Below, piece by piece: positions 59,922 through 64,000 of a stretch of DNA of 64,000 nt; within the stretch, counting starts at the first letter, position 1, and the number at the start of each line of letters is the position of its first letter. The translations under genes were made by a program, and so were the position numbers. Source of the DNA: Neophaeotheca triangularis (taxonomy: Eukaryota). The stretch covers positions 744,001 to 808,000 of the forward strand of contig BAAIJX010000003.1 of the NCBI GenBank assembly GCA_054600435.1, given 5' to 3'. The notes under the pieces are model-generated. The model worked only from the letters and a program-made list of their open reading frames with translations, was not told the DNA's origin and ran no database searches.

Positions 59922-60816
59922 CTAGATCTGGGTGTATCTCAAGTATGGCCTAACCTCTTGCACATTGCCAAACTTCTTCCTCGCGTCCTCGGTTTTGACG
60001 CTCGGTGGGACGATAACATCGTCACCGACCTGCCAGTCGATCGGAGTGGTAACGCTGTAGTATCGTGTTAGCAAGACTTCTCTCACCCGTATCGACAGTG
60101 CATACGTACCCCTTCTTGTCGCCAGTCTGCAGGCTGTCAATGACTCTAAGCACCTCGCTGGTGTTACGACCGGTGCTCGCGGGATACATCATAGTCAAGC
60201 GGATCTTTTTCGATGGGTCGATGATGAAGACGGAACGAATGGTGAAGGCAATGCCCTTTTCGCTAATGTTGGTCATGTCTTGGGCGTCGAGCATGTCGTA
60301 GAGGAAAGCGACATTGCGGTCGGCGTCAGCGATGATGGGGAATTGCAAGTTGGTGTTGCCAATGTCGTTAATGTCCTTGATCCAAGAGTCGTGGGAGGAG
60401 AGGTCGTTGGCAGACTATTGGGCGTGTTAGCTGCTGTACGGGCAGAATTGACCATGTCGGCTGATCCCTACCAATCCAATCATCTTGACGCCTCGCTTCT
60501 CGAACTCATCCTTCATCTTTGCGAATGCACCCAGCTCGGTTGTGCACACTGGCGTGAAGTCTGCAGGGTGGGAGAAGAGGATTCCCCAGCTGTTGCCGAG
60601 CCATGAATGGAAGTCGATGTCGCCGTGAGTTGTTTGCGCATTGAAGTTGGGGGCAACGGAGCCCAGTCGGAGCCTGGGTTGCTCTTGCTGGCTAGGTGTG
60701 GCGAGGTATCGACGGAAGATGGGAGAGGCTTGTCTCTGGGCGAACGAGGGAGTGTTCGCGATGCGCGTGGTGCGAGTGGCGTTGCGCAATGCGCTGCGAG
60801 CGAAGATGGCGGACAT
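59922..60816 (-). CDS. PRX1: Mitochondrial 1-Cys peroxiredoxin, 3 exons
   Basis: Presequence MSAIFARSALRNATR; FSHPADFTPVCTTE; RLTMMYPASTGRN. Introns 60415-60471 and 60055-60109; ends PYLRYTQI. Confidence 0.95.
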
Positions 60817-61120
60817 GGTTATATAGGTAGAAGGGCGATGCAAGTGGAACAGGTTGTTTGATGGGACAATTGAATGTTTCTTCGAAGAAGGCGTGAAAGA
60901 GTTCTGTTGAGTAGGTAAGATACTATGTAGGTCCAACGTGAATGCGCTGCGAGCTCGCATTCGGTATGGCGTCACACTGAACGATTCGCACGTAGAAGTA
61001 AATCCCAGCACGACGACGAACCCCTCATCACGCTTGATATCAACTTCCGAAGATCCGCCGTCGCAGGAACAAAACTAAGCTCCCCCGCTGTGGACCTTCC
61101 TCTCCTTCTCTTTCCCCTCC

Positions 61121-61263
61121 ATACTTACCTTGTCAGCCTGTGGGCGCTCACGCATGCCTTCCAGGTGCAAAGACTCTCTGCATTGCACAGCGCGGTAGAG
61201 TCTTCGCATGAGTCTCCTTCGGGGGCCTCACTGGCGGAATTTTTGATGGTTCAATGTCAATCA
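61121..61263 (+). ncRNA. U1: U1 spliceosomal snRNA or U1-like variant (3' end uncertain)
   Basis: 5' ATACTTACCT; closing helix GTCAG(61132)/CTGGC(61231); SL1 with 10-nt loop GCTCACGCAT; SL2 AAGACTCT/AGAGTCTT with U1A loop ATTGCAC (61182); SL3 with TTCG loop; Sm site AATTTTTG (61238). All elements are in U1 order and spacing. Confidence 0.88.
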
Positions 61264-62067
61264 CAACATACAGCCCCCTTTTCATCAGATGCTTCCTGTC
61301 GTTTGTGCGGCTGGTGCCTGGAGAAGAGGTAGAAGGTGGCTTTGGTTGCTAGGTACCTTCTGAGGTAGTGGACGTCTGCTATTCACTGGCAAAGTACCTC
61401 AAATGGCCTCTCCGTATTGGAATCGTGGCATATTCAAATACCAGCTTCGTTGAGCCTCTCCTGAGCACCTTCATGGATGGGGGCCTCCATCTTCGTTGCT
61501 TGGGGCACGCTTATTAACCAAACCGCCGTTGCTGTGAGTGGAACATCAATTCCTGATGTCTCTGAGAGACCGGTGCCTTTTCCACCACCATTTCGTCCAA
61601 TAGATGACAAGGGTTAGAGTTAGAGTGTCACGAGTGTGCTGGTCCACCACCTCCTGTTGAGGTGCACCGCGAAGGGGTCAAGCAAAAAGACACCAGCGTT
61701 ACGCTGCAATGGGGGACTTGAGCTTACCGACTACAGCCGCCTGGTAGCCATGAAGGATGGCAAGAGGGGGATGGACCTATAAAATCACTCACAAGTCTCC
61801 AACCCGAGACTCGCCAATTCTCTCGGAAGGTTCACACAGGGAATCCAACCCAGCCAAAGCATGGGCCGACCGATCTGTACAGTACGGACGACGGACGCAT
61901 ACGTCTCGAAACGGCTGGCGCAACGACATCAAAAGCCAATGTTCATGAGGGTATCCGCAATCTAAAAACAGTCCCAAACGCCCCGTACGTCCCATGGCCG
62001 CAGTCATGAAGAGCAGAGCAACTCCCTCCATACTGTCCAAAACATCAACCCAAGCAATCCACCCCAT

Positions 62068-64000
62068 TCACAACCCCTCACCCTCCCCAGGACCCCTCTC
62101 AGCCGCAGTCCGCCGAATCCTCTCCTCCTCCCGAACACAAGCCCCCAAAGCCCCAACCACAAACTCCCAACCCACCAGACTCCCATCCTTTGGCCCACCC
62201 CACCCACCCTGCCAAACAACCTCCCCCCCGTCCCGCCCAGCGGCACCATAAACCCCCCTCAACGCCCTCGCCATCCCATCCCCAAGAAACGCAATCTCCC
62301 CCCTCTCCATGGCCTCCACAACCCCACCCTCAACCAAAACCGCCATAAAACTCGCCACCACATACGCATGCTCTTCGGTAAAAGTATATCCCCCTTTTCC
62401 ATTCCGCACAGCCTGCTCCGTCCCCACGATGGCCGCGAGTTGCGGCGCCATGGGCGGCAGGGTCTGCCACGCTGTTAGCGGATTCGGGATGATGCTGTCG
62501 GGTTTTCCCGAAGTGCAGGATTTGAGCATGCGGTGGAGCGTTCGCATGTGCGCGAGGGTCCAGGGGTGGGTTTGAGAGAGGATGCCGTAGCGGGAGCGGA
62601 GGTGGGAGCGGAGGTTGGAGGGAAAGGGAAGGGGCGAGGGAGTTTGGGAGGGTTGGGATGAGGTGTTTGTGATGGCGGTCCAGAAAGTGCCGGAGAGCTT
62701 GGTCAGGAAGGTTGGGGCTGGAGGGGGGTTGGTTGTGGGGAGGCGGGGGGCTTTTTTTGAGACGAGGGTTATCGTTTGGGGTGATTTGGGGGACTCTTGA
62801 TAGGTGCTGGCGGTTGGCTGGGCTGATCCGAATAGCGGCGGGTGGTTTTTCTTCGGCAATAGCAGGGTTGAGTTGCCCTGAGAGTCGTGTCCTTGAGAGA
62901 GGGAGTCGTTGAACTTGACGCGAATTTTCTGTGGCGAATCAAGGTTGAGATGTTCCTCGTAGCTTCGCGAAGGTTCTTGCACAACCTCGTCGTCAGTTGT
63001 GACATAATCGCTTTCTCCCTCTGGCTGCTGATGCATAGCTTCTTCTTCATTGTCGACGTAGCTAGCCTCGCTTTGTCCAAGGTTCGTCGAAGTCTGCTCT
63101 TCAGCATACGAGAATTCAACTGTCGTGCTTCTAGGCCGCTTGACCGACGCCTGAGCTTCAGCAAGCAGTTGGCGCTGATCTGACGCCTTGCTTTGGAAGC
63201 TGTCGACCATATCTTGCGTCTCCTCGGCGGATTGGTCTAAAGCCTTGCTCATAGGGCTGTCTCGGACTTTACTGCTTTTGAGCAGACTCTTCCTAAGAGG
63301 ACTACTCATGGGCTTGTGCTTGGCCGGCGAGCTTCTCACTTTGCCTTCTGCAGCTTTCGTACGCAAGGCATTCGCTTGCTGCCTTTGCCTAAACTCAGCA
63401 GCTCTCGAGGAGCGATACACGACGGGCTTCCGAGGGCTGTTGCTGACCGGTTTCGAGGTAGTCGTGGCATCTATCCCACTGGTCTCGGGCCCAAGTAGTT
63501 CACTAAGGTTAGGGCCCGGATCTTTTCTAACAGGAGGACGTTCACGGCGCCGGTAAACTTGAGGCATGTTGCTTTGCCAAAACATGCCAGTGTCATCGCC
63601 ATCTGGGCTGGTGACGTTGTCGCTGCTATCAGAACCCGAACTGCCATCGGCCTCGTCTTGCTGCTCATCTGCTGCTTGCTCGTCTGCACCGGTGGCCTGA
63701 CTTTGAAGCTGCGTCGCTGCGCCATCTGGCTCCGTCAATTCTGATGACCCATCCTCCTCCACTTCTTTGCCAACCCCATCTACCGCCTGTTTCCTAACCT
63801 CATCATCCGTACTGGGAGGGGTCAAGACGCCACTGCTTCTGCGGCTCTCTCCTGTCTCCGAACCCGACGTCTTTCGGCGCTCATCATCCACTGCAGGGTG
63901 TGCTGGAGAGTCAGAGTACGCAAAGTCATTGCCAGAGCTCCGCCGCCACGTACGTGGAATCTTGGATCGAAGAGGCCGCAGAGGTTGATCGGCGAAAAGG
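62068..64000 (-). CDS. Hypothetical protein, 5'-truncated by window edge; disordered N-terminal part with folded-looking C-terminal domain
   Basis: The frame is open from the window end to TGA at 62068 (>640 codons). C-terminal HPWTLAHMRTLHRM...YVVASFM...WEFVVGALG. Confidence 0.75.
   Translation of the reverse strand, partial: LFADQPLRPLRSKIPRTWRRSSGNDFAYSDSPAHPAVDDERRKTSGSETGESRRSSGVLTPPSTDDEVRKQAVDGVGKEVEEDGSSELTEPDGAATQLQSQATGADEQAADEQQDEADGSSGSDSSDNVTSPDGDDTGMFWQSNMPQVYRRRERPPVRKDPGPNLSELLGPETSGIDATTTSKPVSNSPRKPVVYRSSRAAEFRQRQQANALRTKAAEGKVRSSPAKHKPMSSPLRKSLLKSSKVRDSPMSKALDQSAEETQDMVDSFQSKASDQRQLLAEAQASVKRPRSTTVEFSYAEEQTSTNLGQSEASYVDNEEEAMHQQPEGESDYVTTDDEVVQEPSRSYEEHLNLDSPQKIRVKFNDSLSQGHDSQGNSTLLLPKKNHPPLFGSAQPTASTYQESPKSPQTITLVSKKAPRLPTTNPPPAPTFLTKLSGTFWTAITNTSSQPSQTPSPLPFPSNLRSHLRSRYGILSQTHPWTLAHMRTLHRMLKSCTSGKPDSIIPNPLTAWQTLPPMAPQLAAIVGTEQAVRNGKGGYTFTEEHAYVVASFMAVLVEGGVVEAMERGEIAFLGDGMARALRGVYGAAGRDGGEVVWQGGWGGPKDGSLVGWEFVVGALGACVREEERIRRTAAERGPGEGEGL

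Follow-up and report, generated by a model that had tools for sequence, protein, structure and literature searches.

In Saccharomyces cerevisiae the 3' trailers of the snRNA precursors contain Rnt1 stem-loops, substrates that are defined by an AGNN tetraloop. Metazoan snRNA genes carry the 3' box, the Integrator signal, with the consensus GTTTN0-3AAARNNAGA situated just beyond the mature 3' end, at a distance of a few nucleotides. The U1 snRNA of budding yeast is expanded and longer than the metazoan U1, with extra stem-loops situated before the Sm site, and in human U1 the stem-loop SL4 is functionally important. In Schizosaccharomyces pombe, according to the passages of PMC8421224 drawn on here, Pac1 binds snU1, snU2, snU4 and snU5, and its removal or exclusion from the nucleus leads to Pol II read-through and accumulation downstream of the snRNAs; hairpins with stems of 23–32 nt and loops of 3–5 nt are predicted directly after the mature units. 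The corresponding passages of PMC2377427 describe for Aspergillus fumigatus a U1 cDNA of 132 nt, with 157 and 67 clones for the two gene copies, and a Northern band of 130 nt.

The window, which is the whole stretch of 64,000 nt (64 kb) of Neophaeotheca triangularis DNA that was analysed, carries a U1 gene that is followed on the same strand by a hairpin which is conserved and covaries among U1 loci from metagenome contigs. An initial annotation had seen three sets of nested helices downstream of the U1 core, in 61258–61775, and had proposed an RNA of about 650 nt in which a U1 module is joined to a structured 3' domain, or else a second RNA, co-transcribed and of no known family.

The U1 gene and its neighbours

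The features of the locus are the following, in window coordinates.

60022–60805, minus strand: peroxiredoxin gene (AhpC/TSA, by Pfam), divergent from the U1 gene
61090–61120, plus strand: pyrimidine-rich, promoter-proximal tract, with 90% C+T in the last 30 nt before the U1 start
61121–61252, plus strand: U1 snRNA gene of the short fungal type, 5' end exact, 3' end predicted
61238–61246, plus strand: Sm site AAUUUUUGA, aligned to the Sm site of the Rfam model
61247–61263, plus strand: variable spacer from the Sm site to the hairpin, no significant fold (z = +0.38)
61264–61348, plus strand: full long hairpin, 31 bp in the minimum-energy fold (hairpin 1 of the initial annotation, in a slightly different register)
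61276–61330, plus strand: conserved covarying core of the hairpin, with CCUUUUCAUCAG as its 5' arm and CCUGGAGAAGAGG as its 3' arm, and between them an inner helix and a loop that vary
61349–61775, no strand: intergenic spacer with no supported feature in folds, Rfam, tRNA scan and alignment
62071–63999, minus strand: open frame of 643 aa that runs off the window end, with its stop codon at 62068–62070, convergent to the U1 gene

A short fungal-type U1 gene begins at 61121, and it is an ordinary member of its type. The sole Rfam match in 60500–62500, in an E-value search with E up to 10, is RF00003 (U1) at 61121–61258 on the plus strand, with 52.3 bits and E 1e-11, which is below the gathering score of 69.5; U1_yeast gives no match at E up to 10 in the same interval, and at gathering thresholds no match is found across the whole 64-kb window. 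The score falls below gathering because SL4 is missing and the stems are short, and as every other U1 feature is present the locus is still called a U1 gene. The sequence AUACUUACCU for 5' splice-site recognition constitutes the 5' end of U1 (61121–61130), the four-way junction with SL1–SL3 is present in a covariance-model alignment over model positions 1–166 with a posterior that is mostly high, and the SL2 loop CAUUGCAC of U1 is located at 61181–61188. In the Rfam alignment the 23-nt interior of SL4 in the model is reduced to 3 nt, and the interval 61239–61300 has no significant fold against dinucleotide shuffles. The Sm site lies 125 nt from the 5' end, and the mature 3' end should be situated about 6–7 nt beyond the Sm site, as judged from the 132-nt cDNA and the 130-nt Northern band of A. 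fumigatus and from the fact that conservation has faded by about +10.

U1 loci were collected from metagenome contigs by a scan for a motif that combines the 5' end of U1 with its SL2 loop and Sm site; at least 115 loci were returned, and these were divided by how far the Sm site lies from the 5' end into a short class (130 nt or less) and a long class (more than 130 nt). Among the matches listed, the short class has 72 loci (124–130 nt, with the window at 125 nt) with 66 distinct cores, the long class has 43 loci (131–133 nt), and no locus is more than 80% identical to the U1 core of the window. In the 14 of the 43 long-class loci that were inspected a canonical G-rich SL4 begins 5 nt after the Sm site; the short-class loci are without it. 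The T at +2 after the G of the Sm site (61247 in the window) does not vary in any of the 63 distinct short-class sequences among the matches listed, and the conserved motif of the Sm region thus reaches AAUUUUUG-M-U. Two short-class U1 copies (L097 and L098) are located about 900 nt apart on one contig of 1.5 kb.

The pyrimidine-rich tract before the U1 start is a common property, since the mean C+T content upstream of U1 is 85% in 59 distinct comparable loci among the matches listed. Many of these 59 loci have in addition a TATA-like box farther upstream, within the 110 nt examined. No obvious TATA box is found upstream of the U1 gene in the window.

The peroxiredoxin gene is covered by RNA contigs from four runs, extending over 60000–60897, and these join across both of its introns, 60055–60109 (55 nt) and 60415–60471 (57 nt). 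The contigs come from three studies, including marine metatranscriptomes, and are 90–100% identical to the gene; none of them reaches the U1 gene or the DNA downstream of it. The 643-aa frame on the other side has a high content of Ser, Pro and acidic residues; it gives no family in Pfam, and its neighbours in the protein atlas are weak, with scores of 0.76 or less.

A conserved hairpin just downstream of the Sm site

The long hairpin begins 17 nt after the Sm site, and its core at 61276–61330 corresponds to the inner part of hairpin 1 of the initial annotation in a slightly shifted register. By eye, a recurrent element can be recognized past the Sm site of the short-class loci, which consists of a variable spacer, (C)UUUUCAYYR, a small helix with its loop, and YUGRAGAAGA(G). 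An alignment of 39 segments, the window and 38 of the metagenome loci, was made with MAFFT and was not fitted to a structure. The RNAalifold consensus on this alignment has 17 pairs, and 12 of the 17 show compensatory double changes. Standard pairs occupy 91.4% of the cells, as compared with 49–58% when the 3' partners are slid by 1–3 columns, the covariation score is 0.549 as compared with 0.12–0.18 in the slid controls, and none of 500 shuffles attains any of the observed measures of pairing or covariation. The alignment holds 148 G-U cells, and standard pairing is 91.4% in the U1 sense and 70.1% on the opposite strand, which assigns the fold to the transcript in the U1 sense. A genuine conserved RNA structure is thus located just 3' of the Sm site on the U1 strand.

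Folded with 25-nt flanks, the window hairpin has a minimum-energy stem of 31 pairs; over the 39 aligned hairpins the median is 28 and the range 3–38. The stem base, CUUUUCA/GAAGAG, always contains a U-G pair and has one A that faces a purine without pairing, and six of its columns (U, U, U, C, G and G) are invariant in the alignment, whereas the upper stem covaries freely. The apical loops are of 4–6 nt, pyrimidine-rich and variable, and the AGNN tetraloop is absent from them.

A covariance model of 48 positions and 17 pairs, here called R1, was built from the alignment, with the window sequence in its training set. In the 64-kb window it finds one credible site, 61276–61330, with 30.9 bits. 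A weak match at 2389–2421 on the minus strand (12.8 bits, E 0.26), with a CUUUUC/GAAGAG base and a short interior, is taken as noise. Among the matches listed, 68 short-class loci extend for 100 nt or more downstream, and 58 of these show a match that scores at least 20 bits, located on the U1 strand and 0–35 nt past the Sm site; four further short loci have weak matches (14–17 bits) in the same position, and none of the 43 long-class loci has a match. The 58 positive loci comprise 38 training sequences and 20 others, 6 of which duplicate a training sequence.

A few loci deviate. A second, weaker R1 copy is found on the U1 strand in L043 (1154–1201, plus strand, 22.1 bits), about 70 nt after the first hairpin, and in L004 (475–524, minus strand, 17.4 bits), 376 nt after the Sm site; these could be tandem fail-safe hairpins or due to chance. 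An R1 match is absent in L097 and L098, of which L098 has just 85 nt past the Sm site, and the two could represent another lineage, one in which U1 genes are in tandem. L051, L069, L050, L055 and L099, which are without a strong R1 match, have variants of the element (UUUUCGUUGA ... GUUGAAGA) or a G/C-rich hairpin directly after the Sm site, so that the short class is heterogeneous and the element possibly wider than R1.

The distance from the Sm site to the start of the R1 match is 0–35 nt with a median of 19 among the matches listed, and neither the length nor the sequence of the spacer is conserved; in some loci it is 0–5 nt, which places the hairpin exactly at the position of SL4. When the short-class loci are anchored at the Sm site the information drops to background by about +10. 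A second alignment compares the window with nine U1 loci from among the more similar or most informative ones; the U1 core and the hairpin can be aligned in it but not the spacer, and past about 61335 no conservation is left. As the relatives are distant (80% U1 identity or less), this comparison reveals strong constraint only.

Possible roles of the hairpin

We regard it as rather probable that the hairpin is a cis-acting element for 3'-end processing and termination in the trailer of the U1 precursor. A nuclear RNase III, the orthologue of Rnt1 and Pac1, would cut the hairpin stem co-transcriptionally, 3'-to-5' exonucleases would then trim the RNA to the Sm core and give a mature U1 of about 130 nt without SL4, and the downstream product of the cleavage would be the entry point for a 5'-to-3' exonuclease that leads to termination of RNA polymerase II. 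We infer all three of the central points, namely the absence of the hairpin from the mature RNA, the enzyme and the role in termination. The interpretation is proposed because the hairpin fits the description from S. pombe in position, strand and size, and because of the length of the A. fumigatus U1. The latter is 130–132 nt, and in the short class the Sm site is already about 125 nt away from the 5' end, so that the mature U1 would end before the hairpin.

Like the Pac1 hairpins of S. pombe, as these are presented in the parts of PMC8421224 used here, the hairpin is long, imperfect and small-looped, and is located directly 3' of a Pol II snRNA of the Sm class on the snRNA strand; that it is also past the mature end is suggested by the A. 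fumigatus length. By the measure taken from PMC8421224 such a stem should be double-stranded over some 20 bp at least, with bulges allowed and a small loop, and the 31 pairs in the window and the median of 28 in the 39 members are in that range, as well as close to the 23–32 nt of the S. pombe stems. Two differences should be kept in mind: cleavage and termination are demonstrated for the S. pombe hairpins and would be expected for the present one, and the family has a stem base that is conserved in sequence across many loci, a property that goes unmentioned for the S. pombe hairpins in those parts of PMC8421224. By its position and shape only, the hairpin would belong to the class of Pac1/Rnt1 trailer hairpins. 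With the Rnt1 stem-loops of S. cerevisiae it would share the nature of a 3'-trailer hairpin that gives endonucleolytic entry for trimming by the exosome, but those have the AGNN tetraloop and the loops of the present family are of 4–6 nt, pyrimidine-rich and variable. The U1-1 and U1-2 of A. fumigatus (PMC2377427, in the parts used) are compared by length, and are likewise short, since 130–132 nt is approximately 125 nt and a few nucleotides.

Several observations speak against the interpretation as a processing element of the trailer. A stem base conserved in sequence is unusual for a plain substrate of a double-strand-specific RNase III, the loops are not AGNN, the spacer of 0–5 nt in a few loci makes the hairpin abut the Sm site like SL4, and the z-score of the hairpin in the window is only −0.54. 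These objections sustain two other interpretations, in which the hairpin is a displaced SL4 or is read by its sequence.

The first of these, which we find rather unlikely, is that the mature U1 retains the hairpin in place of SL4, as a displaced substitute specific to the lineage, which would make the RNA about 210–230 nt (61121 to about 61335–61348). The canonical SL4 is absent here, and in long-class loci among the matches listed (14 of 43 inspected) it is found 5 nt past the Sm site; the importance of SL4 in human U1, the location of the hairpin on the U1 strand, its start 0–5 nt past the Sm site in some loci and a conserved stem-base sequence of the kind expected for a protein-binding site all agree with such a replacement. 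In addition, the hairpin and the canonical SL4 are alike in being the first hairpin past the Sm site on the U1 strand. They differ in that the canonical SL4 is placed at 5 nt with a conserved G-rich stem (14 of the 43 long loci), whereas the hairpin has a variable spacer and belongs to another sequence family, and unlike the canonical SL4 it is probably not part of the mature RNA. The spacer of 0–35 nt among the matches listed is unconserved and the apical loop is variable, which is not in favour of a displaced SL4, and the 130–132 nt given for the A. fumigatus U1 in the relevant part of PMC2377427 leave no room for a hairpin of 48 nt and a spacer. PMC2377427 also states that the Aspergillus snRNAs keep the stem-loop arrangement of Rfam, and this statement could mean that an SL4 was drawn for the Aspergillus U1.

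The second interpretation appears improbable to us. The signal would be recognized by its sequence and not by RNase III, as a fungal counterpart of the metazoan 3' box, and the hairpin would merely present the CUUUUCA/GAAGAG base. The stem-base columns are invariant or nearly so, including the U-G pair and the unpaired A opposite a purine, while the upper stem covaries, and the loops are without AGNN, all of which could be expected from such a reader. On the other hand the strong covariation shows that the pairing itself is selected, the consensus of the metazoan 3' box has 0 matches in the whole 64-kb window, and we know of no dedicated factor that reads a base of this kind.

The remaining helices and the meaning of the family

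The helices that the initial annotation had named are all present in the sequence, at the positions it gave or within 1 nt of them, and they are mutually compatible as it had claimed.

61258–61263 and 61343–61348: outer helix of hairpin 1, CAATCA/TGGTTG, read from the sequence
61272–61275 and 61338–61341: inner helix of hairpin 1, AGCC/GGCT, read from the sequence
around 61361–61401: hairpin 2, TGAGGTA/TACCTCA, read from the sequence
61468–61476 and 61748–61756: anchor of the long arm, CCTTCATGG/CCATGAAGG, read from the sequence
61509–61513 (given as 61510 in the initial annotation) and 61719–61723: GCTTA/TGAGC, read from the sequence
61528–61532 and 61706–61710: GTTGC/GCAAT, read from the sequence
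61572–61581 and 61684–61694: GGTGCCTTTT/AAAAAGACACC, with one mismatch and one bulge
61648–61664: internal hairpin CACCTC-CTGTT-GAGGTG, read from the sequence

The absence of a credible ORF is also confirmed, as the stop-to-stop frames within the region are of 59 aa or less. Against dinucleotide shuffles the 518-nt stretch 61258–61775 has no folding advantage on either strand, with z = +1.27 on the plus strand (88 of 100 shuffles fold at least as well) and z = +1.30 on the minus strand. The nested long arm (61468–61756) has z = +0.24, hairpin 2 (61355–61405) z = −0.65 and the CACCTC/GAGGTG hairpin (61630–61670) z = +0.49. Hairpin 1 (61250–61350) has z = −0.54, and U1 and hairpin 1 taken together have z = −0.57; as even the real hairpin is not flagged, the thermodynamic z-scores have little power here. 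Of 200 dinucleotide shuffles made from the 518-nt stretch, 38% contain a perfect inverted repeat of at least 9 bp, as in CCTTCATGG/CCATGAAGG.

No tRNA is detected downstream of U1 by the tRNA scan, and the scan for promoters and terminators of bacterial type gives nothing relevant. BLAST of 61246–62100 against all the metagenome U1 loci listed returns the hairpin region and noise only, and the alignment of the window with the nine related U1 loci gives no hint of conservation in 61349–61775. The conservation and covariation downstream of the Sm site are a property of the first hairpin and do not extend beyond about 61335. Measured by the conditions that the initial annotation had named for its own refutation, the outcome is divided, with a folding energy at the level of shuffles on one side and the conserved, covarying first hairpin on the other. 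Hairpin 1 alone exceeds chance, by comparative evidence rather than by energy; the other helices, in 61349–61775, look like chance pairings in intergenic DNA, and the interval may overlap the 3' region or UTR of the convergent minus-strand gene. The initial annotation holds for a structure on the U1 strand just past the Sm site, with SL4 absent and no Rfam match, and fails for hairpins 2 and 3.

The RNA of about 650 nt, or a second co-transcribed structured RNA in 61258–61775, is very improbable: its helices exist and are compatible, transcripts that read through the hairpin must arise, if only transiently, and the comparison reached distant relatives only, so that a lineage-specific conservation of 61349–61775 is beyond its reach, but hairpins 2 and 3 (61361–61775) fold like shuffles on either strand, the longest inverted repeat is at chance level, no known family is found by Rfam downstream of U1 at E up to 10, conservation ends at about 61335 in ten U1 loci, and known expanded U1s, such as that of budding yeast, have their insertions before the Sm site and not after it. 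The proposal can be set aside.

What is well supported is an RNA structural family, with a model of 48 positions, 17 pairs and strong covariation, that is attached to short fungal U1 genes without SL4. The hairpin itself has no Rfam match at E up to 10. In the literature searched, where subscription journals are scarcely covered, no description of a hairpin 3' of U1 in filamentous fungi was found, and the portion of PMC2396436 used here makes no mention of a hairpin downstream of U1.

If the hairpin is an entry site for RNase III, the cleavage-coupled 3'-end formation and termination of snRNAs in yeast would extend to the present fungal group, and a precise cis element that can be mutated would be gained. 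For genome annotation the hairpin would then mark the true end of the U1 transcription unit, and it may explain how a U1 without a 3' stem-loop is made. Should the hairpin stay in the mature RNA, the architecture of this U1 would differ from what the A. fumigatus sizes imply. A lineage-wide, sequence-specific signal in place of a generic RNase III substrate is conceivable though doubtful, and it would be either the target of a dedicated reader of the invariant CUUUUCA/GAAGAG base that ends all Pol II snRNAs of the filamentous ascomycetes, or a relocated SL4 in the mature particle that contacts the U2 snRNP from a variable distance to the Sm ring. If either of these is true, an undescribed RNA family would be attached to U1 in a large group of fungi.
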